From contig CAWJGT010000019.1 in assembly GCA_963842525.1 (NCBI GenBank), forward strand, positions 192,001 through 256,000: a stretch of 64,000 nucleotides of DNA, written 5' to 3'. Both the position numbers and the translations under genes were made by a program. Shown here one piece after another: positions 40,658 to 64,000 of the stretch (the first letter of the stretch is position 1; each line of letters starts with the position of its first letter). Source of the DNA: an uncultured Holophagales bacterium (lineage in GTDB: Bacteria > Acidobacteriota > Thermoanaerobaculia > Multivoradales > UBA5704). The notes under the pieces were generated by a model. The model saw only the letters and a program-made list of their open reading frames with translations. It was not told where the DNA came from and did not search any database.

Positions 40658-43600
40658 TGGAGAGAGCGAAGGTCCTGGCGGACCTGCCGGCCGGCAAGCG
40701 CGAGGCGCTGCTGCACCTGCTGCGGGAGCGGAAGCTCGCCCAGCGGCGGCCGGAGATCCGGCCCCGCCCGGCGGAGCTCGTCCGCGTGCCGCTGTCCTTC
40801 TCCCAGGAGCGTCTCTGGTTCCTGGAGCAGCTCGAACGCGGGACCGCCACCTACAACCTCCCATACTGCGTACACCTGGCGGGACGCCTCGACCTGGACG
40901 CCCTGCGGCGCACCCTGGCGGAGGTGGTGCGCCGGCACGAGTCGCTGCGCACCACCTTCGGCCAGAGCGAAGGCAGGCCCTTCCAGGCCGTGGGATGCCC
41001 CTGGGCCCCCGCACTGCCGCTGATCGACCTCTCCGCGGTCACCCCCGTCGCCGATATCGCCGACATCGCCAATCACTCCGCCGCGGTGTACACAGCGGAG
41101 CTGCGGCGCCTGTTCGCGCTGCAGGCATGGCAGCCCTTCGATCTGGAGCATGGACCGCTGCTGCGTTGCCAGCTCTTCCGCCTCGGGCCGGAGGACCACG
41201 CCTTCGCCCTGACCATGCACCACATCGTCTCCGACGGCTGGTCCATGACCGTCTTCCTGCGCGAGATCTCGGCGGTCTACAGCGCGTTCTGCGCCGGCCG
41301 GCCCTCGCCGCTGCCGGAGCCGCAGATCCAGTACCCCGACTTCGCCGTCTGGCAGCGGCAGCACCTGAGCGGCGCGGCTCTCGACGCCGCGCTCTCCTGG
41401 TGGCGCGAGCGGCTGGCCGGCGTGCCGGCGCTCGAGCTGCCCACCGACCGGCCGCGGCCGCCCGTCCAGAGCCATCGCGGCGCGGGGTTGCTGCAGACGC
41501 TCGATCCCGCGGTCACGGGCCTCCTGCGCGAGCTCGGCAACCGGCAGGGGGCGACGCCGTTCATGGTCCTGCTGGCTCTCTGGCAGGTGCTGCTCCTCCG
41601 TTACAGCGGCCAGGACGATTTCGCGGTGGGGACCCCGGTGGCCAACCGCGACCACTTCGAGGTCGCGGACCTGATCGGATTCTTCGTCAACACCCTGGCG
41701 CTGCGCACCCGCCTGGCGGGCGGTATCGGCTTCCTCGAGCTCCTCGGCCGGGTGCGCCAGGTGGCCGTCGAGGCCTACGACCACGCCGAGCTGCCGTTCG
41801 AGAAGCTCGTCGAGCATCTCCAGCCCGAGCGGTCGGCGGACCGCAACCCGCTCGTCCAGGTGTTCTGCATGATGCAGACCCAGTCGTGGCCGGACCTCCG
41901 CCTCGGCGATGTCCTGCTCTCCCCGATGGATCTCGGCACCGGAACCTCCAAGTTCGAGCTGAGCCTGGGCTGGACCGAGAACAAGGGGTGCTTCCTCGGC
42001 GCCCTCAACTACAGCACCAACCTGTTCGACCGGGCCACCGCCGAACGCATGCTGCGCCACTACGTGACGCTGGTCGGCTCCGTGCTGGCCGATCCCTACC
42101 GGAGTGTGACGGAGCTCTCTCCTCGACGACGCCGAGCGCCGCGCGCTCCTCGCCGAGGCGGCCGGACCTGCCCTCGATACGACGGCCGGCCGGTGCGTCC
42201 ACCACCGCGTCGAGGAGCACGCGGCGTGTGCTCCCGAGGCTCCCGCGGTGGAGGACCTGACCTACCGCGAGCTCAACGAGCGCGCCAACCGGCTGGCCCG
42301 GTGGCTGCGCTCCCAGAGCATCGGTCCCGAGGCGCGGGTCGGCGTGCTCTTCGAGCGCTCGCCCGAGATGGTGGTGGCCGCGCTGGGTGTGCTCAAGTCG
42401 GGAGCCGCGTACGTGCCGCTCGATCCCTCCTATCCGGCGGACCGTCTCGGGTTCATCCTCGCCGATTCGCAGATGGGAGTGGAGCGGCCCCTGCTGGTGA
42501 CGCGCGAGGGTCTGGTCGGGTTGCTGCCGAAGACATCGGAAGACACCGCGCGCCGGGCGCGGATCGTCTGTCTGGACGCCGACGAGGAGGAGCTGGCGCG
42601 GCAGGACGCCGGGAACCCGCCGGCCCTGGCCGGGCCGGACAACCTGGCTTACGTGATGTACACCTCCGGCTCGACGGGCAGGCCCAAGGGCTCGGCCGTC
42701 ACTCACGCCTGCCTCGCCAACCTGGTGGACTGGCACCGGGAGACGTTCCGCGTAACCCCGGCCGACCGTACGACCCAGGTCGCGAATCCGGCCTTCGATC
42801 CGGTGGTCTGGGAGCTCTGGTCGTGCCTCTCCTGCGGGGCCTGGCTGCGGATCCCGGAAGAGGGTGTGCGCTCCGATCCCGCGCGCTTGGTCGATTGGCT
42901 GGCCGCCGAAGAGATCACCATGAGCTATCTCCCCACGCCCCTGGCGGAGGCGGCGCTGGCTGCCCCATGGCCGGTGGAGATGCGCCTGCGGACGCTCTTC
43001 ACGGGCGGCGACCGCCTGATCCGCCGGCCTCCCGCGGGGGCGGCGTACGAGATGATCAACTGCTACGGGCCGGCGGAGTGCACGGTGATTTCCACGGTGA
43101 GCTGCGTCGAGCCCCCGGGGCAGGGGCAGTTACCGGGGCTGCCGTCCATCGGAACACCCGTCTCCTGCGCTCGGGTCTATCTGGTGGACCTCTGGGGGAA
43201 CCTGGCCCCGGCCGGCGTGCCCGGAGAGGTCTGGATCGGCGGCCGTGGGACAGGGCGGGGCTACCTGGGCCGGCCGGACTGGACCGCCGAGCGCTTCGTG
43301 CCGGACCCGTTTGGCGGATGGAGGGGAGAGCGGTTGTACCGTACCGGCGATCTGGCGCGGCGCCGGCCGGGGGGAGCTCGAGTTCCTCGGGAGGATCGAC
43401 CATCAGGTCAAGGTGCGCGGTATCCGCATCGAGCTGGGAGAGATCGAGGCGGGTCTGCTGGAGCATCCGGAGGTCGGCGGCTGCGCGGTGATCGCGCGGC
43501 AGGACCGGCCTGGGGAGCGGAGCCTGGTGGCCTATGTGGTTCCTTCCGGGGAGGCGGCGGGCGCCGAGTCCGTTTCCGTGGCTCCGAGCCCCGCCGAGCT

Positions 43601-46600
43601 CCGCCGCTTCCTGGCGCAGCGGCTCCCGGCGGCCATGGTGCCCTCCGGCTTCGTGATGCTCGAGGCCCTCCCCTTGAGCCCCAATGGCAAGGTCGACCGC
43701 CGCGCTCTAGCGCGCCGGGAGCCTCCCACCGACGCGGCGCGGGCCTCGGCCGCCTGCGAGCACGTGCCGCCGCGCACCCCCACCCAGGAGATCCTCGCAG
43801 CGGTCTGGTCGGAGCTCCTCGGGGCCGAGCGCGTCGGCGCCAGCGACAGCTTCTTCGAGCTGGGCGGCCACTCCCTGCTCGGCGTCCAGGTCCTGTCGCG
43901 CCTGCGCACCCTGCTGCGGGTCGAGCTGCCGGTCCGCACCCTGTTCGAGGAGCCGACGCTCGAGGGCTTCGCGGCCCGAGTGGACATGGCGCTCCGAGAA
44001 GGAGCTGCGACCGCGGCGCCTCCGCTCCAGCAGGTCCCACGGGAAGAGCACCAAGGGAGATCACCGCTCTCCTTCGCCCAGGAGCGGCTCTGGTTCCTCG
44101 AGCGGCTGCAGCCGGGCACGGCCTTCTACAACATCCCTTCCGCCACGCGCTTCGCGGGGCCGCTGCGGGTCGACGTCCTGCGCCGCGGCTTCGCGGAGCT
44201 GGTGCGCCGCCACGAGTCGCTGCGCACCACCTTCGGCGAGGAGAGCGGCCGGGCCTTCCAGGCCGTCGCGCCCGCTGGCTCCGCCGAGATGCCGTTGATC
44301 GATCTGGCCTCTCTGCCGCAGGCACCGGACAACCCGCTGCGTGAAGCCGAGCTGCTGCGCTGCGCCACCGGCGAGGCGAGGCGCCCCTTCGACCTCCAGC
44401 GCGGCCCGCTCGTCCGCGCGCCGCTCTTCCGGCTCGCGCCGCAGGACCATGTCCTGGTGGCGACCATGCACCACATCGTCTCCGACGGCTGGTCCATGAC
44501 CGTCCTGATCCGCGAGATGGCGACGCTCTACGAGGCGTTCTGCGACGGTCTTCCGTCGCCCCTGCCCGCGCTGCCCGTCCAGTACGCCGACTACGCCGCC
44601 TGGCAGCGCGGCTGGCTCCAGGGAGAGGTGCTTGCGGCCGAGGTCGCGTGGTGGCGCGAGCGCCTGGCCGGGCTGGAGGTCCTCCAGCTCCCGACCGACC
44701 GCCCGCGCCCGCCGGTCGAGACCTTCCGCGGCCGGCAGCGCACCGCCTGGGTCTCGGCCGAGCTCACCCGCGGCCTCCACGAGCTGAGCCGGCGCGAGGG
44801 GGTCAGCCTTTTCATGACCCTGCTCGCCGCCTTCCAGACGCTGCTCTTCCGCTACAGCGGGCAGACCGACCTGCCGGTGGGCTCGCCCATCGCCAACCGC
44901 AACCGCAGCGAGACCGAAGGGGTTATTGGTTTCTTCGTCAACACCCTGGTGCTGCGCACCGACCTGTCCGGCGAGCCGACGTTCCGCGAGCTGCTGGCAC
45001 GGGTGCGGGAGGTGACCCTGGGGGCCTACGCCCACGAGAGCCTCCCCTTCGAGAAGGTCGTCCTGGAGCTCCAGCCGGAGCGCGACATGAGCCGCAACCC
45101 GCTCTTCCAGGTGATGTGCGTGCTGCAGAACCAGCCGCTCAAGGCGACGCCGCTGCGCGGCCTGGAGATCTCGGGGCTCGGCCTCGATACGGCGACGGCG
45201 AAGTTCGACCTGACCCTGGCCTGGAGCGAGGCGGGGGGCGCCCTCGGCGCGCTGCTGGAGCACAACACCGACCTGTTCGACGACGCCACGGCCTGGCGGA
45301 TGTACGAGCACTGCGTCGCCCTCCTCCGCGCCGGCGTGGAGGATCCGGACCGCCGGGTCGGCGCCCTGCCGCTCCTCGGCGAGGCCGAGCGCCGCCAGCT
45401 CCTCGCCGAGGCGGCAGGGCCAAGCTGGAGTGGGGAGGGCGGATGCGTCCACCACCGGGTGGAGGAGCATGCGGCGCGTACCCCCGAATCCCCGGCCGTG
45501 GAAGACCTCACCTACCGGGATCTCAACGAGCGCGCCAACCGGCTGGCCGGGTGGCTGCGCGCGCACGGGGTCGGTCCCGAGGCGCGGGTCGCGGTGCTGC
45601 TGGAGCGCTCGCCGGAGATCGTGGTGGCCGCGCTGGGCGTGCTCAAGGCGGGAGCGGCGTACGTGCCGCTCGACCCCTCCTATCCGGCGGAGCGTCTGGC
45701 CTTCCTCCTGGCCGACTCGCAGGCGGGCCCCAGGGGGATAGACCGGACGGACCGGCCGGTGGTGGTGACGCTCGAGGGATTGACCCGGCTCCTGCCTGAT
45801 CAGACGGCGCGGATCGTCCGCCTTGACGCCGACGCCGGCGAGCTGGCCCGCTACGGCCCCGGCAACCCGCCGCCGTTCGCCGCACCGGATAACCTGGCCT
45901 ACGTGGTCTACACCTCGGGCTCGACCGGCCAGCCCAAGGGCGCAATGGTCTCTCATGCCAATCTCGCTCACCTGGTCGACTGGCACCGGGAGGCGTTCCA
46001 CCTGACTCCGGCCGACCGCACGACCCAGGTCGCCAACCCGGCCTTTGATGCCGCGGTCTGGGAGGTCTGGTCGTGCCTCGCCTGCGGGGCCTGGATGCGC
46101 ATCCCGGAGGAGGCCGTGCGCGCCGACCCCGCGCGTCTGGTCGCCTGGTTGGCCGCCGCGGAGATCACCGTCAGCTTCCTCCCCACGCCGCTGGCCGAAG
46201 CCGCGCTCGCCGCGGTCATCCCGGAATGGCCGGCGGGGATGCGCCTGCGGGCTCTTCTCACCGGAGGCGACCGCCTGGTCCGCCGGCCGCCTGCAGGGGC
46301 GGCCTTCGAAATGATCAACTGCTACGGGCCCGCCGAGGCGGCGGTGGTCTCCACCTGGGGCCGCCTGGCGCCTGATGCGGCAGGAATACCGTCGATCGGT
46401 CTGCCGCTCCCTCGCGCGCGGGTCCATCTCGTCGACCCCTGGGGGGACCTGGCTCCGGCCGGCGTGCCCGGGGAGATCTGGATCGGCGGACGCGGGCTCG
46501 GGCGCGGCTACGTGGGCCGGCCGGACTGGACCGCCGAGCGTTTCATGCCGGACCCGCTCGGCGGCGGACAGGGCGAGAGGCTCTACCGCACCGGCGACCT

Positions 46601-49600
46601 GGCGCGGCGCCGGCCGGGCGGGGAGATCGAGTTCCTCGGGCGCATCGACCAGCAGGTCAAGGTCCGCGGCGTCCGCATCGAGCTGGGAGAGGTGGAGGCG
46701 GCTCTCCTGGAGCATCCGGAGGTCGGCGGCTGTGCCGTGATCCTGCGGCAGGATCGGCCGGGGGAGCGCGGCCTGGTCGCCTACGTGGTGCCGGCGAGCG
46801 CCTCCCTGGTCTCACCCTCCGACCTCCGCCGCTTCCTGGCAGAGAGGCTGCCGGTCGCCCTGGTGCCCTCGGCCTTCGTGGCGCTCGAAGCCCTGCCGCT
46901 CAACCCGAACGGCAAAGTGGACCGCCGCGCCCTGGCGCGTCTGGAGGCGCCCGCCGGCTCCACGTCCGCCGCCGAGCACGTACCGCCGCGCACCGTCACG
47001 GAAGAGATCGTCGCGGCCATCTGGGCCGACCTCCTGGGGGCCGAGCGCGTGGGTATCGACGACGACTTCTTCGCGCTGGGCGGCCACTCGCTGCTGGGGA
47101 TCCAGGTCCTGTCGCGCCTGCGCACCGCCTTCGGCGTGGAGCTGCCGGTGCGCGCGCTCTTCGAGGAGCCGGTGCTCGAGGGCTTCTCGGCTCATATCGA
47201 CGCGACGTTGCGCGACAGCGCCGCCGTTGCGGCGCCACCCCTCGAAAGGACGCCGCGCACGGGGCGGCTGCCGCTCTCCTTCGCCCAGGAGCGGCTCTGG
47301 TTCCTCGAGCAGCTCGAGCCGGGCACGGCCTTCTACAACATTCCCTCCGTCACCCGCTTCCGCGGGCCGCTGCGGGTCGACGTCCTGCGCCGCGGCTTCG
47401 CGGAGATCATGCGCCGCCACGAGTCGCTGCGCACCACCTTCGGCGAGGAGCACGGCCAGGCCTTCCAGGTCATCGTGTCCGAGGTCCCGTCGGAGATGCC
47501 GGTGATCGATCTGGCGGCGCTTCCCGGCACGGCGCGCCTGTCGCGCCTGTCGCAGGATACCGAGCTGCTGCGCCTCGCCACCGGCGAGGTCCGGAGCCCG
47601 TTCGATCTGCAGCGCGGCCGGCTCGTCCGTGCGCTGCTCATCCGCGTGGCGCCGCAGGACCACGTCCTGGTCGCGACCATGCACCACATCATCTCCGATG
47701 GCTGGTCGATGACCGTCCTGATCCGCGAGATGGGCACGCTCTACGAGGCCTTCTCCGGCGAGCGCCCGTCCCCCCTGCCCGAGCTGCCCGTCCAGTACGC
47801 CGACTATGCCGCCTGGCAGCGCGGCTGTCTCCAGGGGGAGGTGCTCGCGGCCGAGGTCGAGTGGTGGCGGGCGCGTCTGACCGGGGTGACAGCGCTCCAG
47901 CTCCCGACCGACCGGCCGCGTCCGCCGGTCGAGACCTTCCGCGGCCGGCAGCGCTCCGTCCGGCTCCCGGCCGAGCTCGCCGGAGCTCTCCACGCGCTGA
48001 GCCGCGGCGAAGGGGTGAGCCTCTTCATGACCCTGCTCGCCGCCTTCCAGACGACGCTCTTCCGCTACAGCGGCCAGACCGATCTGGCGGTGGGCTCGCC
48101 GATCGCCAACCGCAACCGCAGCGAGACCGAAGGGGTCATCGGCTTCTTCGCCAACACCCTGGTGCTACGCACCAACCTGTCCGGCGATCCGACCTTTCGC
48201 GAGGTGCTGGCGCGGGTGCGTGAGGTGACTCTCGGCGCCTACGCCCACGAAAACCTCCCCTTCGAAAAGGTTGTGATGGAGCTCCAGCCGGAGCGCGACA
48301 TGAGCCGCAATCCGCTGTTCCAGGTGATGTGCGTCCTCCAGAACCAGCCGTGGAAGGCGGCGCCGTTGCGCGACCTGGAGATCTCGGGGCTCAGCCTCGA
48401 CACGGCGACGGCGAAGTTCGACCTGACCTTGTTCTGGCAGGAGGTGGGAGGCACCCTCGGCGGACTGCTGGAGCACAACACCGACCTGTTCGACGACGCC
48501 ACGGCGTGGCGGATGTACGAGCACTGCGTGGCCATCCTGCGCGCCGGCGCGCAGGACCCGGACCAGCGGGTCGGCGCTCTGCCGCTGCTCGCCGAGGCCG
48601 AGCGGCACCAGCTCCTGCGCGAGTGGAGCGGGCCGGCCAGCGCGCCAGACTGGGTGGGCCGCTGCATCCATCACCAGGTCGAGGAGCAGGTGGCGCGTAC
48701 GCCCGGGGCCACAGCCGTGATCGACGGCGAGCGGTCGCTGACCTACGCCGAGCTCAACGCCCGGGCCAACCGCTTGGCCCATGGCCTGCGCCGGCGCGGG
48801 GTGGGGCCGGAGTCGTTGGTGGGCATCTGCGTCGAGCGCTCCCTGGAGATGGTGGTGGCAGGCCTGGCGGTGGCCAAAGCGGGCGGCGCGCTGGTCGCGC
48901 TAGACCCGGCCTATCCGCGCGAGCGGCTGGCCACGATCATCGACGACGCGGGCCTGACTGTGCTGTTGACCCAGGAGGCGCTGCTGGAGAGCTTCCCGCA
49001 GCATGCGCACACTGCACTCCTGTATGAGCGGGGGGCCGACCTGTTCCCGGAGGAGAACACGGCCGATCCAGACAGCGGCGTCGATCTGGACAACCCGATC
49101 TATGCCATCTACACGTCGGGCTCGACGGGCCAGCCGAAGGGGATCGTGGTCACCCACCGGGCTTTCTCCAGCCTGCTCGCCTGGCAACTCAACGCGCCAG
49201 GGCTGCGTCCGGGGACGCGGACGGTGGCGTTGTCGACCTTCGGCTTCTGCGTCAGCTTCCAGGAGATGTTCTCCTCCTGGTGCTCGGGCGGCATGCTGGT
49301 GGTGGCCGACGAGATGACACGGCGCGACATCATCGGGCTGGGCGCCTTCCTGGAGGAATACGGCATCGAGCGGTTGCACCTGCCGTTCGCCGCCCTCAAG
49401 CACCTGGCCGAAGCCTTCTCTGGTCAGAACCGACTGCCGTCGCGTCTGACGGAGGTGATCACGGCGGGCGAACAGCTCCAGGTCACGCCGGCGGTCCGGT
49501 CGCTGTTCGAGCGGCTGCCCGGGTGCGCGCTGTCGAACCAGTATGGGGCGTCGGAGACGCACGTGATCAGCGCTCTGACGCTGGCGGGCGCGCCCGCGGA

Positions 49601-50513
49601 GTGGCCGGCGATCCCGCCGGTGGGGCGGCCGGTGGCGCGGGTGCGCATCCACCTGCTCGATCCGGGCCTCCAGCCGGTGCCGGTGTGTGTGGCCGGTGAT
49701 CTCTATGCGGGCGGCGTCTGCCCACCTCGGTGCTATCTGAACGATCCGGTGCTGACGGCGCAGAAGCTGGTGCCCGATCCGTACGGCCTGGAGCCGGGCT
49801 CGCGCCTCTATCGCACCGGCGACGCGGCGCGCCATCTGGCCGACGGCAGCATCGAGTACCACGGCCGGATCGACACCCAGGTGAAGATCCGTGGCTTCCG
49901 GATCGAGCTCGGCGAGGTCGAGACCGTTCTGGCCCGCCAGCCGCGGGTGCGTGATGCTGCCGTGGTGGCAAAGCCGGGCGGTGCGGACGGGCACCGGCTC
50001 GTCGCCTACGTGGTGCCGCAGACGGAGCCGGCGAATTTCGACGAAATCCGGACCTACCTCAAGCAGACGTTGCCCGAGTTCATGGTGCCGTCGGCGTTCG
50101 TCGAGATGCGGGAGCTGCCGCTGAACGCCAACGGCAAGCTCGACCAGGCGGCGCTGCCCGAGCCGGACCCTCAGTTCCTGACGCGGGTCTACGTGGCCCC
50201 GCGCACCCCGGTCGAGGAGACGCTGGCCGGCCTCTACGCGAGCCTGTTGAAGGTCGAGAAGGTGGGGATCTACGACAACTTCTTCGAGCTGGGGGGGCAC
50301 TCCCTGCTCGGCACGCGCCTGATGGCCCAGGTGCGCGAGGTCTTCGGCGTCGAGATCAAGGTGCGGACGCTCTTCGAGGCGCCCACTGTCGCCGATCTGG
50401 CCGTGGCGGTCGCGCGGAAGCTCATGGACGACACCGACGACGAGGCCCTGGCGGCGGTATTCGCCGAGATCGAGCGGGAAGAGATTCTCGCGAGGAGCGA
50501 GGGCCATGGCTGA
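40654..50513 (+). CDS. NRPS 3: C-A-T, C-A(Leu-like)-T, C-A(Pro-clade, D235C)-T, interrupted by two frameshifts (about 42120 and 43372)
   Basis: ORFs 40654..43491, 42248..44344 and 43245..50513 join into one three-module protein. The shifts lie in a CTCTCT run and a G6 run. Confidence 0.9.
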
Positions 50514-53500
50514 GAAGCCCAGACAGCTCGACGGGCTGCCGCCGGAGAAGCTGCAGCGCTTGATCGAGAAGCTCCAGGCCCGGAGGCAGGGGGGGACCAG
50601 CCAAATCCCGCGCCTGCCGCGGGCCGCCGGGAGCAGTGTGCCGCTCTCCTTCGCCCAGGAGCGTCTCTGGTTCCTCGATCGGCTGGAGCCGGGCAACCCG
50701 ACGTTCAACATGCCGGCTGCCGTGGACCTCACGGGCGAGCTGCGCGTGGGAGCGCTCGCCGCCGCGGTCGCCGAATGCATCCGCCGGCACGAGGTCCTGC
50801 ACACCCGTTTCCGGATGGGGCCCGCCGGGCCGGTCCAGGAGGTCGTCCCCGGCGCCAAGGCCGCCGTACCGCTCGTCGACCTCGCCGGGCTGCCGGAGAC
50901 GGCGCGCCTGCGCGAGGCGGACCGGCTGGCGGCGGAGCACGCCCATCGACGGTTCGACCTGGAGCGCCCGCCGCTGCTTGCGGTCCTGCTGGTGCGCCTG
51001 GCGGCGGACCGCCACCGGTTCCTCCAGGTCATGCACCACATCGTCTCCGACGGCTGGTCGCTCGCCATCCTCTTCCGCGAGATCAGCGAGCTGTACATGG
51101 CCTTCGCCGCGGGGCGGCCCTCGCCGCTGCCGGAGCTGCCGATCCAGGTCGCCGACTATGCGGTCTGGGAGCGCCGGACCTTCGCCGCGGCCCAGGACCA
51201 GCAGATCGCCTGGTGGATCGAGCGGCTGCGGGGTGAAATCGCCCCTCTCGACCTGCCCATCGATCGGCCGCGGCCGGCGGTCCAGACCTACCGCGGCGAG
51301 CGGCGCCTGCGCTTCCTCCCGGAGGAGCTGTCCGACCGGCTGCGCACCTTCGGACAGTCTGCCGGCAACGCCACCCTGTTCATGACCCTGCTCGCCGGCG
51401 TCAAGGCGCTGCTCTACCGCTGGAGCGGACAGCACGACGTCGTGGTGGGATCGCCCATCGCCGGCCGGCAGCGGGCCGAGACCGAAGGCCTGATGGGATG
51501 TTTCCTCAACACCCTGGTGCTGCGCACCGATCTCGCGGGCGGCCCTTCCTTCCGCGACTTGGTCGGGCGCATCCGCGAGACCACGCTCGGCGCCTATTCG
51601 CACCAGGACGTGCCGTTCGAGGCGCTGCTCCAGCACCTGCCGGTCGAGCGCGACCTGTCACGGACGCCGCTCTTCCAGGTGCTCTTCAACATGCTCAACT
51701 TCCCGCTGGCGGAGAACCGCCTGCCGGGGTTGACCCTGTCGCCGGTCGGCACCCCCGAGACCCCCTCGAAGTTCGACATGACCTTCTACGTCAGCGACGG
51801 TCCCAAGGGGGTCCTGCTCGACCTCATCTACAACGCCGACCTCTTCGACGCGGTGCGGATGGAGGAGGCACTGGCCCAGATCGAGCTGCTCCTGGCCGAG
51901 GCGCTGGAGCGGCCGGACGAGCCGGTCGAGCGGCTGTCCCTGGTCACCCCCGGCGCACGGGCCGCGCTGCCCGACCCTGAGGAGCCGCTCGACGGCGACT
52001 GGGTGGGGGCCATCCACGAGATCTTCGCCGCACGGGCGCGGAGCGCGCCGGAGCGCACCGCCATCGCCGACCGCCACGGCGCCTGGACCTACGGCGATCT
52101 CCTCGCGGCCAGCCGCGGCATCTCCACCTGGCTCGGCGCGCGCGGGATCGGCCCAGGAGAAGTCGCTGCGGTGTGGGCGCACCGGAGCGCTCCGCTGGCT
52201 CCGGCCGTGCTGGGCATCCTGCGCTCCGGCGCGGCGTTCGCCATGCTCGATCCCGCCTATCCGCCGGCCCGCGTGGTGGACATGCTGGAATTGGCCCGGC
52301 CGGGCGCCCTGGTGCGCCTCTCAGCCGCGGGTCCGCTGCCGGAGGCGGTCGCGGCCTGGGTCGAGGAGGCCGGCTGCGCGGTGCTTGAGCTCGCCGTGGG
52401 CGGCCCTGACGCCACCCTGGAGCTATTCGCCGGCCTGCCGGTCGCGGACGGCCCCAAGGTCGAGGTCGGTCCGCACGACGCGGCCGTGCTCGGCTTCACC
52501 TCCGGCTCCACGGGCAGGCCCAAAGGAATCGTCGGCCGGCACGGGCCGCTGACCCACTTCCTCCCTTGGCAGTGCGAGCGCTTCGGGCTCACCGTGGAGG
52601 ACCGCTTCAGCCTGCTGTCGGGACTGGCCCACGACCCGCTCCAACGCGATCTCTTCACCGCTCTTTTCCTGGGCGCCGCGATCGTCGTCCCGGACCCAGA
52701 AGACATCGGCGTGGCCGGACGGCTGGCGGCCTGGATGGCGCGCGAGCGGGTAACCGTGGCGCACCTGACGCCGGCCATGGCGCAGCTCCTCACCGAGCGG
52801 CCGGCGGGTGGCGCGGAGGTGACCGTCCCCACCCTGCGGCGGGTTCTGCTGGTGGGGGACGTCCTCACCCGGCTCGACGTGGCGCGCATCCGCCGTCTCG
52901 CTCCGCACGTCACCTGCGTCAACCTCTACGGCTCGACCGAGACCCAGCGCGCGGTCGCCTTCCACGAGGTCGAGGAAGCGGGCGCGGGAGAGGGACGGGA
53001 CAAGCAGGTGCTGCCGCTCGGGCGCGGCATGCGCGACATCCAGCTCCTGGTAGTCAACGCCGCGGGGCTCCTCGCCGGCGTCGGCGAGGTCGGCGAGATC
53101 GCCGTGCGCAGCCCGCACCTCGCTCGCGGCTACCTGGGCGACGAGGCTCTGACCGCCGACCGCTTCCGCACCAACCCGTTCACCGGCGCACCGGAGGACC
53201 GCGTCTACCGCACCGGCGACCTCGGTCGCTATCTGCCCAATGGGGAAGTGACATTCGCCGGCCGGGCCGACCTCCAGGTGAAAATCCGCGGCTTCCGCAT
53301 CGAGCCGGGCGAGATCGAGGCGGTGCTCGGCGCGCTGCCGGGGGTGCGCGAGGCGGTCGTCGTGGTCCGCGAGGACCGGGGCGAGAAGCGCTTGGTGGCT
53401 TATGTGGTGCCCGAGCGCGAGGGGGCGGTCGCGGTGGCCACCGTCCGCGAGGCACTGCGCGACCGCCTCCCCGCCTACATGGTGCCGGCTGCGTTCGCCC

Positions 53501-56500
53501 TGCTCGACAGGCTGCCGGTGACCCCCAACGGTAAGATCGATCGCAAGGCCCTGCCCGCGCCCATGGCCGAGACTGCACCGGAGTCGGCCGAGGTCCTGCC
53601 GCAGAGCGAGCTCGAAGAGAGCATCGCCGCGGTCTGGCGCGAGGTCCTGGGCGTCGAGAAGGTCGGTGTGAGCGACAACTTCTTCGACCTGGGCGGGCAT
53701 TCGCTGCTCCTGGTGCGCCTCCACGCGCGGCTCCAGGAGGTCCTGGGGCGCGAGGTCGCCCTGATGGATCTCTTTGCCCACCCCAACGTCCGCGCCCAGG
53801 CCGCGCGTTTCGGCCGCCCTGTGGAGGCACCTCCGCGGCCGGAGGCGCTCGTGCGCCGCCGGATGTCCGCTGCGGGCGCGAGCGGGAAGGTGGCCGTTGT
53901 GGGCATGGCCGGCCGGTTCCCCGGGGCCAAGGACCTAGACCGCTTCTGGCGTAACCTCTGCGACGGCGTCGAGGCGATCTCCTTCTTCTCTGATGAAGAG
54001 CTGATGGCCGGCGGCGCCGATCCGTCGCTGCTCGGCAACCCCAAGTACGTCAAGGCGCGGGGCGTGCTGGCGGACGAGGACCTCTTCGACGCCTCCTTCT
54101 TCGACATCCCGCCGCGGCAGGCCGAGGTGATGGACCCGCAGCTCCGGGTCTTCCTCGAATGCTCCTGGGAAGCCCTGGAGAGCGCCGGCTACGACCCGTC
54201 GCGCTACCCTGGCGCCATCGGCGTCTTCGGCGGCGTCACGATCTCCACCTACCTGCTGAGCAATCTCCTTTCGAACCCGGAGCTGCTCGCGGAGGTGGGC
54301 GTCTACCAGGCGTCGATCGGCACCGACCGCGACTTCCTGACCACCCAGGTCTCCTACAAGCTGGGCCTGCGTGGCCCGAGCCTGGACGTGCAGACCGCCT
54401 GCTCGACCTCGCTCGTGGCGGCCCACCTCGCTTGGCGGCTGCTGCTCGCCGGCGAGTGCGACATGGCGCTGGCGGGCGGCGTCTCGGTCAAGGTGCCTCA
54501 AGTCTCCGGTTACTTCTATCAGGAGGGGGGGCTCGACTCCTCGGACGGCCACTGCCGGACCTTCGACGCCAGGGCCGACGGCTCGGTCTACGGCGGCGGC
54601 GTCGGCCTGGTGGTGCTCAAGCGCCTGGAGGACGCGCTCGCCGACGGCGACACGATCCATGCGGTGATCCTGGGCTCGGCCATCAACAACGACGGCGCGG
54701 CCAAGGTGGGCTATACGGCGCCGAGCATCGAGGCGCAGGCCGAGGTCATCGCCACGGCCCAGGCGGTCGCCGGGGTGGCGCCGGAGTCGATCGGCTATAT
54801 CGAGTGCCACGGTACGGGCACGGCGCTGGGTGATCCAATCGAGGTGGCGGCCCTGACCCGGGCCTTTGGGCCGATCGAGCGCAAGGGCTTCTGCCCGATC
54901 GGCTCGGTGAAGACCAACATCGGCCACCTGGGAGCGGCGGCGGGCGTTGCCGGCCTGATCAAGGCGGTGCTCGCCGTGGAGCACGGGAAGATCCCGCCAA
55001 ACCTCCACTTCACGACGCCGAACCCCAAAATCGATTTTGCGGCCAGCCCGTTCCATGTCAACGTGCGCCTCGCCGATTGGCCGCCCGCGGGGAACAACGG
55101 GGACAATGGCCTGCGGCGGGCCGGCGTCAGCTCCTTCGGCCTCGGCGGCACCAACGCGCACATGGTCCTGGAAGAGCCGCCCGCAGCCGAGCCGTCCGGG
55201 CCGTCGCGCCCCTGGCAGCTCCTCCTCCTCTCGGCCCGTTCCGAGGCGGCGCTCGAAGCGGCGACCGACAACCTCGCCGGCTGGCTGGCGGAGCATCCGG
55301 AGGCGCCGCTCGCCGACGTGGCCTGGACCCTCCAGGCCGGCCGGCGGGCCTTCGCGGTCCGGCGCGCCGTGGTCTGCCGCGATCCTGAGGAGGCTCGGCA
55401 GGCCCTTGCGGAGCGCGATCCGCGGCGGCTCTTGACCGTAGTCCAGGAGCCCGGGAGCCGGCCGGTGGCCTTCCTGCTCGGGGGCGTCGGCGATCACTAC
55501 CCGGGCCTGGCGAAGAGCCTCTACGAAGGCGAGCCGGTTTTCCGGGCGGAGCTCGACCGTTGCGCCGAAGGGCTGCGGCCCGACCTCGGTGGCGACCTGC
55601 GCGAGGTGCTCTTCGAAGGTGAGCGCCGGGGCGACGAAGGTGGCCTCGACCTGCGAAAGATGATGGGCCGCGGCGGCGCGCCGGCTGGACGGCTCCAGCG
55701 TACCTTCTGGGCGCAGCCGGCGGTCTTCACGGTCGAATACGCTCTGGCTCGCCTCTGGATGTCCTGGGGCGTGGTGCCCGAGGCGCTCCTCGGCTACAGC
55801 CTGGGCGAGTACGTGGCGGCCTGCTTGGCGGGGGTCTTCTCCCTGGAGGACGCGCTGCGCCTGGTGGCCGAGCGGGCGCGCCTCCTGGAGGAGCTGCCGG
55901 CTGGGGCCATGCTCGCCGTGCCCTTGCCCGAGGAGGAGATGCGGGTGCGGCTCTCCGGCCAGTTGGACCTTGCTGCCGTCAACGGGCCGCAGCTCACCGT
56001 GGTATCGGGCCTGCCGGAAGAGATCGCGGCTCTGGCCGAGCGCCTGGCCGCGGAGGGGATCCCCTCGCGGCCGGTGCCTACGACTCACGCCTTCCACTCG
56101 CGGCAGATGCGCCCCGCGGCCGACGCGCTCACCGCCCTGGCGCGGCAGATGCGCCTGGCGCCGCCGCGCATCCCGCTCCTGTCGAACGTCACCGGCACCT
56201 GGATGCGGCCGGACGAGGCCATCGATCCCGCCCGCTGGGCGCGCCACCTCTGCGGCACCGTGCGCTTCGCGGACGGCGTCGCGGCCCTCTGGCAGAGCCC
56301 ATCGCGGGTCCTCCTCGAGATCGGACCGGGCAACGGCCTGTCGGCGCTGGCGCTCCAGCACCCGGCGGTGTCTTCCGGCGTAGGAGACCGGGTCGCGGTG
56401 CCGTCGCTCCCCCATGCCCACGACCGCCAGCCGGACCAGGCCTTCCTGCTCGGCGCCCTGGCGCGGCTCTGGCTGGCTGGCGTCGAGGTCGACTGGAGCG

Positions 56501-59500
56501 GCTTCGCGGCCGGCGAGCGCCGGCGGCGCCTGACGCTCCCCACCTATCCTTTCGAGCGCCGCCGGTACTGGGTGGAGGCGCGGCGCGTGGGCGCTCCAGC
56601 CGTACAGAGTGCCGTCGCCGAGCCGGCCGCGCCTGTCGCTCCCACACTGCACGCCCGGCCGGCTCTGCGGCGCGCCCACGTGGCGCCGCGCAATGAGATT
56701 GAGGCGCGGATCGCCGGCTTCATCGAGCGCCTCCTGGGGATCTCAGGTATCGGCGTCCATGACAGTTTCTTCGAGCTGGGCGGCCATTCGTTGCTCGGCA
56801 CCCGGTTGCTCTCCCGCTTGCGCGACGAGCTGGGCGTCGAGCTGCCCATCGAGGACCTCTTCGCGGCGCCCACCGCGGCCGAGCTGGCGGAGAAGGTGGC
56901 GGCACGCTCCTCGGCAGTGCCCACCGTAGCTGCGCCAGGCGCCGTCATCCCGGTATCGCGGAAAGGCGAGCTGCCGCTCTCCTGGGCCCAGGAGCGGATC
57001 TGGTTCCTCGACCTGCTCCAGCCTGGCAGCCCGGCGCACAACATCCCGGCGGCGATCCGCCTAAGCGGTCCGCTCGACCCAGGGGCTCTCGCGGAGGCTC
57101 TGAGGAGGGTGGTGAACCGGCACGAGACGCTGCGCACCACCTTCCCCGAGGTGGACGGCCGGCCCGTCCTGCGCATCGCGCTGCCGAGCGCTTGGCCGTT
57201 GCCCATGATGGATCTGACGGCACTGCCGGCGGACCTCCGCGACGGCGAGGCTCGCCGGCTCGCCCTGGAGGAGCCGCGGCGGCCTTTCGATCTGGCGGCG
57301 GGGCCGCTCCTGCGCACGGTTCTGCTCCGGCTGGACAGCCGGGATCATCTCCTCCTGGCTAACCTGCACCACATCGTCGCCGACGGCTGGTCGCTTGGCG
57401 TCTTCACCGGAGAGATGAGCGCGCTCTATCGCGCCCTGGCTGCGGGAGATGGCTCGCCGCTGCCGGAGCTGCCGGTCCAGTACGTCGACTGGGCCGCCTG
57501 GCAGCGCCGCTGGCTCGACGGTTCCGCGCTCGCCGCGCACCTCGCCTGGTGGAGCGAGCGGCTACGCGCTTTGCCCGTGCTGGAGCTGCCGTCCGACCGG
57601 CCGCGTCCGCCGGTCGAGACTTTCCATGGCGGGCGCAGGTTCTTTGCCTTCCCGGCGGGGCTTCAGACCGCGCTGCGCGATCTATGCCGGGAGCGGGGGG
57701 CGACGCTGTACATGACCCTTCTCGCCGCCTTCGCAACCCTGCTTGGCCGCTGGTCCGGGCAGGAGGACGTCGCGGTGGGCACTCCGATCGCGGGTCGCAC
57801 TCGGGCGGAGGTCGAGGGCTTGATCGGCGTGTTCATCAACACGCTGGTGATGCGTGCCGACCTGTCGGGCGATCCGGCCTTCGAAGAGCTGCTGGCGCGG
57901 GCGCGCGAGACGGCCCTCGGCGCCTACGCGCACCAGGAGATGCCGTTCGAAAGGCTGGTCGAGGAGCTGCGGCCCGAGCGCAGCCTCGGCCATTCGCCGC
58001 TCTTCCAGGTTCTTTTCATTTTGCAGAACACCCCGGCCGACGGGACCGAGGTGGCGGACCTCTCGATCCAGCCGATGGTGGAGGTCTACCACGGCGTCTC
58101 GCGGTTCAACCTGACGCTCTCCTGCACGGAGACGCCGGGCGGGCTGGCGGGCTACCTCGAGTACAAGACGGACCTCGTAGACGCCGCGACGGCGGAGCGC
58201 TGGGTGGGGCACCTCGAGACCCTGCTCGCGGGCGTGGCCGCGGACCCGCGCCGCCGCCTGTCCGAGCTGCCGGTCCTGCCGGAGGCCGAGCGCCGCCAGG
58301 TCCTCCACGCCTGGAACGACACCGCTTTGGAGGTTTCGGAGGCGCCCGTCCACCAGCTCTTCGAAGCCCAGGCGGCGCGCACGCCCACCGCGGTGGCGGC
58401 GGTGTTCGAGGGCGAGAGCCTGACCTACGAGGAGCTGAGCGCCCGGGCCGACCGTCTGGCGCACCGCCTGCGCGTCCTGGGGGTTGGCCCCGAGGTGCTG
58501 GTGGGAGTCGCCCTGGAGCGCTCGCTCGACCTGCCGGTGGCCGTGCTCGGCGTGCTCAAGGCGGGCGGCGCCTACCTGCCGCTCGACCCGGGCTATCCAG
58601 CGGAGCGCCTGGCCTTCATGCTGCGCGACAGCCGCGTCCCGGTGGTCCTCACCCAGAGCCGCCTCGCCGCCGCCCTGCCGGACCACCAGGCCGCCGTCGT
58701 CTTCGTGGATGTCCTTGGTGACCCTGCTGTCCCTGCCGTCCTTGAGCACCCCACTGCCCCCGAGAGCCTCGCTTATGTGATCTACACCTCGGGCTCGACC
58801 GGCCGGCCCAAGGGAGTGCAGGTTTCGCATCGGGCATTGACCAACTTCCTGGTCTCGATGGCCCGCGAGCCCGGCCTGGCGCCGGACGACGTGCTGCTCG
58901 CAGTGACCTCTCTGTCGTTCGACATCGCGGCGCTCGAGCTCTACCTGCCCCTGCTCGTCGGAGCTCGGATCGAGATTGCCTCCGGCCCGGTGGCGGGCGA
59001 CGGCGTGCGCCTCCTCGGGCTGCTGCGGAGCTCCGGGGTCACTGCCGCCCAGGCGACCCCCTCGACCTGGCGGATGCTGCTCGATGCCGGATGGGAGGAC
59101 ACACCCCGGCTACGGCTGGCGCTGGCCGGGGGCGAGGCGCTCACCGGCGACCTGGCCGCGCAGCTCGGCCGCCGCGCGGACGCGCTGTGGAACGTCTACG
59201 GCCCCACCGAAACTGCCGTCTGGTCGACGGTGCTGCGGGTCGAAGGCGCAACCAGCCCTTCGGTCCCGATCGGCCGGCCGATCGCCAACACCCATATCCG
59301 CGTCCTCGACGGCTGGGACGCGCCGGCGCCGGTTGGTGTGCCGGGCGAGCTCGCGATCGGCGGCACGGGCGTGGCGCGCGGCTATCTCGACCGGCCGGAG
59401 CTGACCGCCGAGCGGTTCGTCCCCGATCCGTTCGGCGATCGCCGCGCCGCGCCCGGAGCCCGCCTCTACCGCACCGGCGACCTGGCGCGCTGGCGGCCGG

Positions 59501-62500
59501 ACGGCGTCCTCGAGTTCCTCGGCCGGATCGACCACCAGGTCAAGATCCGCGGCTACCGCATCGAGCTGGGGGAGATCGAGGCCGCTCTCTCTCTGCACCC
59601 GTCGGTGGCGCAGGCCGCGGTGGTGGCGCGCGACGACTGGGGCGATCGGCGGCTGGTGGCCTACGTGGCTCCCTTCGGCGCGCGCGAGCCGGTTGCCGCG
59701 GAGCTGCGCGAATTCCTGCGCGCGCGCCTGCCCGAATACATGGAGCCGGCGGCCTTCGTCGTGCTGCCCGCCCTGCCGCTCACCCCCAACCGGAAGGTGG
59801 ACCGGAAGGCGCTGCCCGCGCCCGAGGCCGCGGCGGCGGCGGCGGGCGCGTTCGTCGGGCCCAGGAGCCCTCTCGAGGAGGTTCTGGTCGAGGTCTGGGC
59901 CGAGGTGCTCCGTCTCGAGCGGGTGGGGATCGACGACGACTTCTTCGCTCTGGGCGGCCACTCCCTGCTCGCCACGCAGGTGGCCTCCCGCATCCAGCGG
60001 GCGCTCGGAGTGGCGCCGCCGGTGCGCTGGCTGTTCGAGCGGCCGACGATCCGCGGGCTGGCCGAGAGGGTGGCCGCGGCGCGCCACGAGGCCGGGCCCC
60101 AGGCGCCGCCCATCCTGCCGGTGCCGCGAGAGGGCGGCCTGCCTCTTTCCTTCGCCCAGCAGCGGCTCTGGTTCCTGGACCGGATGGAGCCCGGGAGCCC
60201 GGCCTACAACCTCAACAGCGCCATCCGCATCCAGGGCCGTCTGGATGCCGCGGCCCTCGTGCGAGCCTTCCAGGAGCTGGTGCGGCGGCACGAGACGCTG
60301 CGCGCGTCCTTCGTCCTGCGCGGCCGCGGCCCGGTCCAGGCGCTCGCGCCGGCGCTCGCCCTGCCGATCTCCGTGGTGGACCTCGGTGCGCTTCCGGAAG
60401 AGGCGCGCGAGGCCGAGGTCCGGGCGCTCGCCGCGGCCGAGAGCCTGCGTTCCTTCGACCTGGGCGTGGCTCCGCTCCTGCGCGTCACGCTGCTGCGCCT
60501 CGGCGGCGCGGACCACGCGGTGTTGCTCACGATGCACCACATCGTCTCCGACGCCTGGTCCATGGGGGTCCTGGTCACCGATCTGGCGCGGATCTACGGC
60601 GCCTTCGCCCACGGCGCCGGCTCGCCCCTGCCTGAGCTGCCGGTCCAGTACGCCGACTTCGCCGTCTGGCAGCGGGAGCATTTGCAGGGCGAGGCCCTGG
60701 AGAGCCAGCTCCGCTACTGGTCTGGCACCCTCGCCGGGGCCCCGGTGCTCGAGCTGCCCACCGACCGGCCACGGCCGGCCCTCCAGAGCTACCGGGGAGC
60801 TGACTTCGCGGCCGGCTTCTCCCCCTCCCTGAGCCGGGAGCTGGCCGACCTCAGCCGGCGCCACGGGGCGACGCCGTTCATGACGCTGCTGGCGGGCTTC
60901 GATCTCCTGCTCTCGCGGTACGCGGGGCAGGAGGACGTCCTCGTGGGCTCGACCATCGCCAACCGCACGCGGCCGGAGCTGGAGGGCCTGATCGGGCTTT
61001 TCGTCAATACCCTGGCCCTGCGGCTCGATCTTGCGGGCGATCCCACGTTCCTCGACGTGCTCTCCCGGGTGCGGGAGCTGACGCTGGGGGCCTATGCCCA
61101 CCAGGACCTGCCGTTCGAGAAGCTGGTGGCCGAGGTCCAGCCGGAACGCGACCTCAGCCGCTCCCCCCTCTTCCAGGTCCTCTTCCAGCTCCAGAATGCC
61201 CCGGCGGGGAGCATCGAGCTGCCGGAGCTCACTCTGACGCCGGTGGCGTCGCCCGGGCAGACCGCCAAGTTCGACCTGGTGGTCAACGTGGTTGCGGCGC
61301 CGCAGGGGCTGTGGTGGCAGTGGAAGCACAACAGCGACCTGTTCGATCGCGCCACCATCGTCCGCATGTCGCGCCACCTCGAGGCGCTGCTGGAGGCGGT
61401 GGCGGCCGGGCCGGGGCGGCTGGTCTCGGAGATCCCGCTGCTCTCCGAGGGCGAGGCGCATCAGCTCCTGGCGGAGTGGGGCGCGGCGCGGCCGGCTTCC
61501 CCGGTCTTCTGCCTGCACGAGCGGTTCGCGGCGCGCGTGGCCGAGGACCCGCAGGGACCGGCGGTGACCTTCGAGGGCGAGACGCTGAGCTACAGCGAGC
61601 TCGACCGCCGGGCCAACCGGCTGGCGCACAGGCTGCGTGCCTGGGGGATCGGCCCCGGCGCTCTGGTGGGTCTGTGCCTGGAGCGTTCGGCCGAGCTGAC
61701 CATGGCCGTTCTGGGCGTGCTCAAGGCCGGGGCGGCCTACGTGCCCATCGATCCGGACTACCCGGGTGAGCGCATCGCCTTCCTGCTCGAGGACAGCCGG
61801 GTGCCGGTGCTGCTGACCCAGAGCTCCCTGGTGGCGAGCCTGCCGGAGGCCTCCTGCCGGAAGGTCTGCCTGGATGGGGAGGACCTCGGAGAGCCGGGGG
61901 CCGGGAGCAAGGAGGGACCGGTCTCGCTCTCCTCGCCCGGGGACCCGGCCTACGTCATCTACACCTCGGGCTCTACCGGCCGGCCCAAGGGCGTGGTGGT
62001 GACCCACGCCAACGTGGCGCGCCTGTTCACGGCCACCGATCCCTGGTTCGGCTTCGGACGGCAGGACGTCTGGACCCTGTTCCACTCCTATGCCTTCGAC
62101 TTCTCGGTCTGGGAGATCTGGGGCGCGCTGCTTCATGGCGGCCGTCTCGTGGTGGTGCCGTATTGGGTCAGCCGCTCGCCGGAGGCCTTCTACGACCTGC
62201 TGCGGCGTGAGCGGGTGACGGTGCTCAACCAGACCCCCTCGGCCTTCCGCCAGCTCCTGTGGGCCGAGGAGGCGGCGCTGCAGGGCCAGGAGCCCGATCT
62301 GGCCCTGCGCTATGTGATCTTCGGCGGTGAGGCGCTGGAGCTTGCCGGCCTGGCCCCCTGGTTCGCCCGCCACGGCGACCGGCGGCCCGAGCTGGTCAAC
62401 ATGTACGGCATCACGGAGACGACCGTCCACGTCACCTGCCGGCCGTTGCGCCGCCAGGATGTCGAAGCGGCCCGCGGCAGCGTGATCGGCCGGGCGATCT

Positions 62501-64000
62501 CGGACCTGGCCCTGCACGTCCTCGATCGGGGTGCCCGTCCGGCGCCCCTCGGTGTGGCGGGGGAGATCTGCGTGGGCGGGGCGGGCCTGGCCCAGGGGTA
62601 CCTCGGCCGGCCCGAGCTGACGGCGGAGCGGTTCGTCCCCGATCCGTTCGGTGGTCTCCGGGGCGAGCCCGGGGCACGGCTCTACCGCTCGGGCGACCTG
62701 GCGCGCCGCCTGCCGGACGGGGAGCTGGAGTACCTGGGGCGCATCGACCACCAGGTCAAGATCCGCGGCTTCCGCATCGAGCTGGGCGAGATCGAGACGG
62801 CCTTGTGCCGGCACCCGGCCGTGCGCGAGGCCGTGGTCCTGGCGCGCGAGGCCGGCGGCGAGAGGCAGCTCGTGGCCTACGTGGTGGCCGATCCGCAGGC
62901 CGAGCCGGGCTTGGGCGAGCTGCGCTCGTTCGCATCCGCCCAGCTTCCCGACTACATGCTCCCGTCCGCCCTCGTAACGCTGCCGTCGCTGCCGCTGACC
63001 GCCCACGGCAAGGTGGACCGCCGGGCTCTGCCCGCGCCCGACCGGGTGCGGCCGGACCGCAAAGGCGAGCGCATGGCGCCGCGCAACGAGATGGAGGCCT
63101 TTCTGGCCGGTCTGTTCCGCGAGTCTCTGGATCTGGAGGAGGTCGGCGTCGACGACGACTTCTTCGAGCTGGGCGGGAACTCGATCTCGGGCGCGATCCT
63201 GATCAACCGCCTCCAGGAGGCGATCTCCGAGATCGTCCAGGTCGTCGTCATCTTCGACGCGCCGACCGTGGCACGGCTCGGCGAATACCTGGTACGGGAG
63301 CATCCTCGGGCGGTGGCGCGCTTCTGGGGCGAAGAGCTGTTGATCGGGACAGGCGGCCCGCAGGCCCGGCGGGTCGACGAGGCTTCGCTCGCGGACCTGC
63401 GCTCGCGCATCCAGCCGCTGGCGCCCCTCCCGCAGACATCGATCGCGAGCAAGAACCCACCGGCCGTCTTCGTGCTGGCGCCGCCGCGCTCGGGCACGAC
63501 GCTGCTGCGGGTCATGCTCGGCGGGCACCCGAAGCTGTTCGCTCCGCCGGAGTTGGAGCTGCTGTCGTTCAACACCCTGGCCGAGCGGCGGGCCGCCTTC
63601 TCCGGCCGCGACAGCTTCTGGCTCGAGGGCGCGGTGCGGGCGGTCATGGAGATCCGCGGCTGCACGGCCGAGGAGGCCAACGCCCTGCTCGACGAGCTGG
63701 AGAGCCGGGGACTGACCACCGCGGAGCTCTATGGACAGATGCAGGGCTGGCTCGGCGAGCGGAGGTTGGTGGACAAGACGCCGTCCTATGCGCTGGACCC
63801 GGCGGTGCTGCGGCGGGCCGAGGAGGTCTTCGACCGGCCGCTGTACATCCACCTGAGCCGGCATCCGCTGGGCATGATCCGCTCCTTCGAGGAGGCCAAG
63901 CTCGACCAGATTTTCTTCCGCCAGGAGCACCCGTACGCGCGGCGCGAGCTGGCGGAGATGATCTGGACGCTGAGCCACGACAACATCGTCGGCTTCCTGC
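50506..64000 (+). CDS. Hybrid NRPS-PKS 4 (runs off the window): C-A(Lys2-like)-T-KS-AT-ACP-C-A(Gly)-T-C-A(Thr)-T-sulfotransferase
   Basis: Absent from the ORF track (no stop). ATG 50506 overlaps the NRPS 3 stop and the frame held at every point I checked to 64000. Motifs: HHIVSDG, HDPLQRD (about 52630), [18 protein letters not shown] (about 54390-54930), [30 protein letters not shown] (Gly code DILQLGVVWK), [18 protein letters not shown] (Thr code DFWNIGMVHK), [13 protein letters not shown] (63481). Confidence 0.95.

Follow-up and report, generated by a model that had tools for sequence, protein, structure and literature searches.

A sulfotransferase built into threonine-type elongation modules of peptide synthetases from uncultured Acidobacteriota

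What is the role of a sulfotransferase (ST) that sits, directly behind a carrier protein, inside an amino-acid elongation module in a nonribosomal peptide synthetase (NRPS), and what is the fate of the sulfate that it would install? The question is raised by a stretch of 64,000 nucleotides, here called the window, from an uncultured Holophagales bacterium (GenBank assembly GCA_963842525.1, 9.95 Mb in 34 contigs; contig CAWJGT010000019.1, positions 192,001 to 256,000 of the forward strand, in our numbering G000:C19:192001-256000). The edge of the window cuts a megasynthase gene of mixed NRPS and polyketide synthase (PKS) type within a module that consists of a condensation (C) domain, an adenylation (A) domain with a predicted threonine code, a peptidyl carrier protein (PCP) and, in the same frame, an ST of the type known from CurM of the curacin pathway. 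We found that this A-PCP-ST arrangement is genuine and that it constitutes a common, as yet uncharacterised cassette for tailoring. The domains, as delimited by tiled Pfam scans, are the following, in window numbering that is simply extended for positions beyond 64000 (KS, ketosynthase; AT, acyltransferase; ACP, acyl carrier protein).

50506..64000, plus strand: 5' portion of the ST-bearing megasynthase gene, with the order C-A-PCP / KS-AT-ACP / C-A-PCP / C-A(Thr)-PCP-ST, going on past the window
60133..61470, plus strand: condensation domain of the threonine module (Pfam Condensation, E 2.5e-108; tile 60043-61482, residues 31-476)
61525..63012, plus strand: A domain (AMP-binding and AMP-binding_C) with the predicted threonine code DFWNIGMVHK, extracted by alignment
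63106..63291, plus strand: PCP with the motif GGNS (PP-binding, E 1.7e-11), the codon of the phosphopantetheine serine being 63181-63183
63292..63435, plus strand: linker between carrier and ST, belonging to the ST cassette that is absent from the next module (BLASTP of the two modules)
63436..64000, on to 64314, plus strand: CurM-type ST, the first ~188 of its ~293 residues lying in the window (4gbm alignment)

The frame in question (50506..63999, plus strand) runs open through the window end and, on the contig, for 8037 aa, with out-of-frame-like sequence after about aa 7393. All peptide strings quoted in the initial annotation of this DNA occur in it, and the reading given there, a threonine A domain and a GGNS carrier followed in frame by an ST, is borne out by the order of the Pfam matches and by the code DFWNIGMVHK, which an extract of PMC12283262 places among the codes of A domains that activate threonine or dehydrobutyrine (Dhb). 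All code-to-substrate assignments given here are predictions.

The ST itself belongs to the family, dependent on 3'-phosphoadenosine-5'-phosphosulfate (PAPS), that is represented by CurM and the olefin synthase (OLS), as had been proposed from the window alone. The match to Sulfotransfer_3 begins at 63460 (E 2.1e-28; 100.5 bits, where the cut-off is 27) and, among the solved structures, the CurM ST (4gbm; E 1.8e-69, query residues 20-312) and the OLS ST (4gox; 6.8e-60) are followed by tyrosylprotein sulfotransferases at only ~3e-06. When an AlphaFold2 model, computed with 56 family members as input (pLDDT 85.4, pTM 0.87), was compared with solved structures using Foldseek, 4gbm ranked first (TM 0.84/0.91, rmsd 2.6, 38% identity) and 4gox second (TM 0.81/0.91). 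About two-thirds of the domain lie inside the window and the remainder extends ~314 nt beyond it; the domain contains PRSGTT and [11 protein letters not shown] as well as the downstream residues on which the earlier reading depended, with the RHP...S 3'-phosphate motif inside the window and an intact C-terminal third beyond it. We take PRSGxT to be the 5'-phosphosulfate loop and R...S the 3'-phosphate site of PAPS. The only segment modelled with low confidence, ST residues 244-266 (~64135-64203), holds the invariant RMTDG...GDVKF; its counterpart in the CurM ST is a mobile active-site flap, and this segment of the model probably is one as well.

Relatives of this domain were collected from the source genome, from other genomes and from metagenomes. 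The source genome contains seven such STs (60-100% identity, tblastn), each with a C domain behind it; the A codes upstream of them are Thr codes in three cases, the Thr variant DFWSVGMVHK in one, DVWHISLVDK, predicted as a serine code in an extract of PMC12964202, in two, and DIWEITADDK in one. One of the Thr-counted STs resides in a C-PCP(GGNS)-ST module without an A domain of its own (L012:8000-9600; C19 ~501,500-503,100), directly after a complete threonine module, the A domain of which may load both carriers. The seventh ST, the one after the DIWEITADDK A domain (L015; G000:C3:1424936-1437949, minus strand; same code as in L077:10001), lies one module ahead of a terminal thioesterase (TE) in an NRPS that also has a methyltransferase domain. 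Three further matches in the genome are distant, sulfotransferase-like sequences (26-27% identity; C3:1479309-1479911, C4:255242-256033 and C23:94117-94755).

A scan by sequence pattern, with each species represented by one genome, returned 591 stretches, 553 of which were confirmed as relatives, and the best 80 of these 553 yielded 76 loci with 110 ST hits, 106 of them distinct. By their labels, nearly all of the 76 loci come from Acidobacteriota, mostly Thermoanaerobaculia, with some Pyrinomonadaceae and one Holophagales; the loci with other labels are two from Herpetosiphonaceae and one from an 'uncultured bacterium'. At least two STs are present in 24 of the 76 loci, mostly one module (~4.1 kb) apart. 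Among the metagenome candidates examined, 1195 proteins matched at E<=1e-20, and the 120 best of them (544-2000 aa), with 122 STs, served as a second set; the Protein Atlas returned only generic Sulfotransfer_3 clusters. The cassette, consisting of an A domain for a hydroxy amino acid, a PCP with GG[N/S/D]S and the ST, is movable and widespread in uncultured Acidobacteriota.

Throughout this family, the positions expected of an active enzyme are retained. PRSG(S/T)T, the glutamate of PPE, the lysine of DK, RHP...S and RMTDG/GDVKF are kept in 105-109 of 109 relatives, and in the seven paralogues the motifs are invariant except for a loop position that varies between Ser and Thr family-wide and for a single Ser-to-Ala replacement in PRSG, which is also the only Ala counted among the 109. 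The putative catalytic glutamate (109 of 109, a count that in the loci is partly by construction, since PPELEL was part of one of the two patterns used in the scan) and the DK lysine (108 of 109) both align to 4gbm in the HMMER alignment. In the CurM ST structure of McCarthy et al. 2012, Glu60 reportedly serves as the base, and a role is likewise said to be assigned to Lys133. Two residues past the glutamate, ELE replaces the ELH of CurM and OLS, so that a glutamate occupies the position of a histidine which is presumably His62 of CurM; this glutamate is found in 7 of 7 paralogues, in 118 of the 122 metagenome-protein STs (Gln in 2, unreadable in 2) and in 109 of 109 STs of the loci, the last figure again partly by construction because of the PPELEL pattern. 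Given the full-length match to CurM and OLS, the shared fold and the retained motif positions, the ST looks intact and catalytic, and a fused ATP sulfurylase/APS kinase, a PAPS synthase encoded elsewhere in the genome, can supply PAPS.

The initial annotation had left it to the next domain to indicate the outcome, with a CurM-type TE pointing to elimination and release, and a C domain to internal sulfation or dehydration. Past 64000, the ST (end ~64314) leads, in frame, into a C domain that starts with [13 protein letters not shown] and contains MHHIVSDG, not into a CurM-type TE, which by that standard indicates internal sulfation or dehydration. The order after the ST is C-A-PCP, C-A-PCP, KS-AT-ACP, C-A(Thr)-PCP-ST2, C-A, KS-AT-ACP and more NRPS modules, the second ST (ST2) being located 13.7 kb downstream of the first (ST1) and 89% identical to it. 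Counted from window position 24222, the NRPS/PKS cluster comprises ~25 modules and ends near C19:300,400 with a transporter of the major facilitator superfamily (MFS); neither a thioesterase nor a reductase for release was detected in it. The final PCP of the cluster reads in one open frame into the MFS transporter (L011:15983-18409).

The same holds for most relatives: the 106 distinct STs of the loci have a C domain behind them in 90 cases and a TE in 9 (L080, L079, L064, L041, L069, L082, L090, L063 and L066; 9 of the 99 assessable), the other 7 lying too near a contig end. Terminal C-A-PCP-ST-TE modules, together with stand-alone proteins of ~1,700 aa (e.g. P0041), are common in Pyrinomonadaceae and other Acidobacteriota, and many of the A domains upstream of ST-TE have the code DG[FL]FHGE[IV]WK. 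The C domains behind the ST appear unremarkable. On a tree built from 281 C domains, those placed after a Thr-ST, 46 in number, require 24 label changes, and no alignment column sets the post-ST C domains apart (maximum frequency difference 0.35; maximum gain of Arg/Lys 0.19). A dehydrating or sulfate-binding C subtype after the ST was considered and rejected for lack of a clade, a signature column or an Arg/Lys enrichment, the comparison being with the other C domains of this set.

On which residue does the ST act? In the loci, 80 STs have an A domain upstream in the same frame, and 52 of these 80 A domains have Thr codes, 12 have Ser codes and another 12 have DAST[VI]AA[VI]CK, here called Tyr-type because we take DASTVAAVCK to be a tyrosine code; the other 4 have the codes DLKNFGTDVK, DLDSCGFISK, DIWEITADDK and DIFHFGLILK, the last of which we take to resemble the codes of hydroxyphenylglycine (Hpg). 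A Thr, Ser or Tyr-type code thus immediately precedes the ST in 76 of 80 cases. By comparison, among the A domains of these loci that lack an ST behind them, Ser/Thr codes occur in 9 of 100 assessable cases (Fisher p 5e-35), and the corresponding figures for the source genome are 4 of 5 with an ST and 21 of 165 without (Fisher p 0.002), both p values overstating independence given the kinship and partial overlap among the loci, after 54 A domains in the loci and 71 in the source genome had been set aside as too near the end of an open reading frame. The module after the ST follows no such rule, with other codes in 57 of 81. Among modules in which a C domain follows the ST, the kind found in the window, the rule is obeyed by 63 of 66 in the loci and by 10 of 12 in the metagenome set. 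The exception DLKNFGTDVK differs little from DLKNVGSDVK and DLKNLGTDVK, which an extract of PMC12283262 gives as homoserine codes.

The phylogeny of the ST follows the same division. In a tree of 109 STs, those associated with Tyr-type codes comprise one clade with a support of 100 (11 Tyr and 2 unassigned), nested among the Ser- and Thr-associated STs, and the substrate labels are far more clustered than shuffled labels. The members followed by a TE are scattered, and one of them is the sister of an ST-C member of the same locus. Clade-specific residues of the Thr- and Tyr-associated STs are found at H26N, D54N, D152E and I154V. The link to the upstream A code, the agreement of the ST tree with the substrate and the absence of a rule in the next module together suggest that the ST acts on the residue of its own module.

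The ST also comes with a carrier of its own type. In the loci, the carriers in front of the ST read GGNS in 68 of 85 cases, GGSS in 10, GGDS in 5 and GGHS in 2, compared with GGHS in 207 of the 242 other carriers; in the metagenome set, the ST-linked carriers read GGDS (54), GGNS (34), GGSS (12) and GGHS (1), with 14 of 122 unreadable. The general trait of the ST-linked carriers is the absence of the usual histidine, not asparagine as such. The boundaries of the cassette can be seen in the module next to ST1 (L009:17295-17795). This module has the Phe-like code DAWTVAAVCK and no ST; its carrier, also GGNS, is 74% identical to the ST1 carrier, its linker into the C domain is 70% identical to the linker behind the ST, and ~310-325 aa between carrier and post-ST linker have no counterpart in it (BLASTP), as if the ST cassette had been precisely lost here or gained by its neighbour.

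Fusion of an ST to a biosynthetic carrier is not without precedent. The STs of CurM and OLS (4GBM, 4GOX) share with the present domain the fold, the family, the motifs PRSG(S/T)T, PPE, DK and RHP..S, and the fusion directly after a carrier. However, they follow a ketoreductase (KR) and ACP of a PKS, where the domain described here follows C-A(Thr)-PCP, and they precede a dedicated TE that removes sulfate and CO2, where here a C domain follows; moreover, they have ELH in place of ELE. The tyrosylprotein sulfotransferases TPST1/2, the next-best structural match (TM ~0.59), are distant; they too are PAPS-dependent peptide O-sulfotransferases, but work as free enzymes on ribosomally made proteins. 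In the sulfazecin pathway, the free-standing SulN is said to N-sulfonate carrier-bound diaminopropionate and to be coupled to a beta-lactam-forming TE; it, too, would sulfonate an amino-acid residue that is still bound to an NRPS carrier, whereas here the domain is fused, the target would be a hydroxyl and a C domain comes next.

Further precedents are cyanobacterial. According to an extract of PMC10143770, AerB, with the architecture OMT-FkbH-PCP-ST (OMT, O-methyltransferase), sulfates carrier-bound glycerate, the sulfate is kept in suomilide and varlaxin, and the second module loads Ile; an extract of PMC2533009 describes the S domain of OciA (cyanopeptolin-1138, oscillapeptin E) as leaving a sulfate ester. 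As far as these extracts go, and compared by description only, OciA and AerB resemble the present case in that the ST is placed behind a carrier of an NRPS, would have a tethered beta-hydroxyl as its target and is succeeded by another module that takes over the chain. They differ in that theirs is a starter module with glycerate introduced by an FkbH-type/GA domain, unlike the internal elongation modules described here, which carry an amino acid selected by an A domain and can be present several times per enzyme. In a search of open-access full texts and bioRxiv, the in-line STs encountered were confined to the ends of PKSs and to the glycerate-loading starter modules of cyanobacteria, and none was described for an elongation module of an NRPS that incorporates an amino acid, an account in a subscription journal being possible.

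We propose that the A domain loads L-threonine, as its code implies, onto the GGNS carrier and that the fused ST, judging from its homology and its neighbourhood, would bind PAPS and sulfonate the beta-hydroxyl of the tethered threonine, as an aminoacyl or a peptidyl thioester. The next C domain, ordinary-looking and placed there by the observed domain order, would then hand the chain to a module for an aromatic residue. The sulfate ester most likely would stay, in which case the product of the ~25-module line would contain O-sulfo-threonine at two positions, those of ST1 and ST2. We would give about an even chance to this reading, O-sulfation of carrier-bound threonine with retention of the sulfate by analogy with the cyanobacterial FkbH-PCP-ST modules. 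Retention is favoured because the same ST serves Tyr-type modules, and a phenolic sulfate cannot be eliminated; because these modules adjoin Ser- and Thr-ST modules in the same enzymes, with the rows Thr-Thr-Tyr (L029, L042) and Ser-Tyr-Tyr (L081); because the downstream C domains are unremarkable; and because AerB and the oci S domain are described as leaving the glycerate sulfated. Of the products considered in the initial annotation, retained Thr-O-sulfate and dehydrobutyrine, both listed there as alternatives, are those that still stand, and the alkene release preferred there does not.

Several observations weigh against this reading, in which the case for retention rests on analogy and on the Tyr-type modules. 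The closest solved relatives, the STs of CurM and OLS, install the sulfate as a leaving group, and a beta-sulfate beside a thioester is prone to elimination. One module with a Tyr code and two with Ser codes in the same cluster have no ST, so that sulfation would be selective. At least three frame breaks occur across the cluster as assembled, and in that form it possibly is nonfunctional. Among the flanking genes checked on both sides, no PAPS, sulfatase or sulfate-transport gene adjoins the cluster; the only full APS kinase match of the genome, that in the PAPS synthase, is on another contig, and this APS kinase had no tblastn match in the 76 related loci. As for the substrate rule, the counts from the loci are not independent, and the literature search returned no paper that holds the presumed tyrosine code DASTVAAVCK or any other Tyr-type, Hpg or DIWE code. 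Finally, among the 62 STs with a readable A domain in the metagenome set, the codes were Thr in 28, Ser in 8, Tyr-type in 4 and other in 22; ST-TE modules account for 17 of the 22, and the prevailing code is DG[FL]FHGE[IV]WK, which weakens the substrate rule for terminal modules.

The foremost alternative, possible but in our view less likely, is that the sulfate is a traceless leaving group which is eliminated, spontaneously or in the C domain, to give dehydrobutyrine, or is displaced internally to give an oxazoline, an aziridine or a beta-lactam-type ring. Like the substrates of the CurM and OLS STs, tethered L-threonine has, at its beta-carbon, a secondary beta-hydroxyl beside a thioester, where a sulfate is labile; the partner of the ST is Thr or Ser in most cases (64 of 80); and, judging by the titles of their structure entries, retinol dehydratase (1x8j) and LGS1 (22ga) are ST-fold enzymes that drive dehydration or ring closure. 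However, the same ST occurs in Tyr-type modules (12 of 80) and in one Hpg-like module, where elimination is impossible; the post-ST C domains are not specialised; and the modules with the same A codes from which Dhb or dehydroalanine (Dha) residues arise are not known to contain an ST. An extract of PMC12283262 groups Thr with Dhb codes and Ser with Dha codes, and one of PMC11730487 describes the CurM and OLS STs as activating the beta-hydroxyl for elimination, as this scenario would have it, whereas the cyanobacterial PCP-ST modules keep the beta-sulfate on thioester-bound glycerate. Possibly, the ST-C pair is a new route to Dhb and Dha or to oxazoline, aziridine or beta-lactam products, with elimination or internal displacement of the sulfate in the course of the following condensation and the Tyr-clade STs being a later offshoot that keeps the sulfate.

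It is unlikely that the ST is inactive or structural, or that it sulfates another hydroxyl of the chain or, in trans, the released product. The replacement of CurM His62 by glutamate and the frame breaks in the cluster are compatible with such a scenario, but 105-109 of 109 relatives retain the residues for PAPS binding and the putative catalytic ones, and the link to the A code, the dedicated carrier and the loss of the ST at a Phe-like code fit selected action on the residue of its own module. The proposal first made for this locus, that a CurM-type TE frees the sulfated threonine by decarboxylative elimination as a C-terminal propenyl enamide, can be ruled out here: the homology to the CurM ST, the ST-TE termini in relatives (9 of 99 assessable) and the many C-A-PCP-ST-TE proteins speak for it, but the module here is internal, with a C domain and further NRPS/PKS modules after the ST and no TE seen in the cluster, and the TE of L080, the only TE of a relative that was tested, is of an ordinary NRPS type that matches TEs of NRPSs and fatty acid synthases (best match 4zxh, 3.6e-32), with no CurM TE among its 47 matches (E<=0.01).

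Some features of the remainder of the assembly line deserve description. The module at window positions 40654-44344 is spread over three frames, which may reflect assembly indels or gene decay: the C domain lies in 40654-43491, the A core (window ~42254-43267; AMP-binding E 1.8e-72) in 42248-44344 and the C-terminal part of the A domain with the PCP in 43245-50513. In the second KS-AT-ACP module, the AT contains a frame shift (L010:2640-2720; C19 ~264,690, or 72,690 in window numbering) after which the correct reading resumes in another frame, at a site without a homopolymer run. Between the NRPS modules lie three KS-AT-ACP modules that lack KR, dehydratase (DH) and enoylreductase (ER) (window 53887-56890; L010:748-3766; L010:11322-14345), each with a CurL-like/RhiE-like KS-AT linker; they would pass their beta-keto units straight to a C domain. 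The A domains that start at 31902, 38477 and 48369 of the window have in common the code CVQHIAQVIK, in which the lack of the usual Asp235 suggests a substrate without a free alpha-amino group, and three further A domains of the cluster read DP[RW]xxGLVNK. The upstream neighbours of the cluster are VWA/Big_7, transglutaminase-like, NAD-GDH and CBM9/DUF5916 genes; downstream are NYN, ABC/Wzt ATPase, GWxTD, an AAA/R3H protein, DUF4097, a KS-like protein and a histidine kinase.

The ST described here is a standard and movable part of amino-acid elongation modules, with a carrier type of its own and a rule of Thr, Ser or Tyr-type partners, and this ST family in soil Acidobacteria probably makes sulfated peptides. 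If the sulfate leaves, the cassette would be a new route to dehydro-amino acids. If the sulfate is retained, these soil bacteria would produce an extensive, so far unseen group of peptides that carry one or sometimes several sulfates, which current structure-prediction tools would miss.

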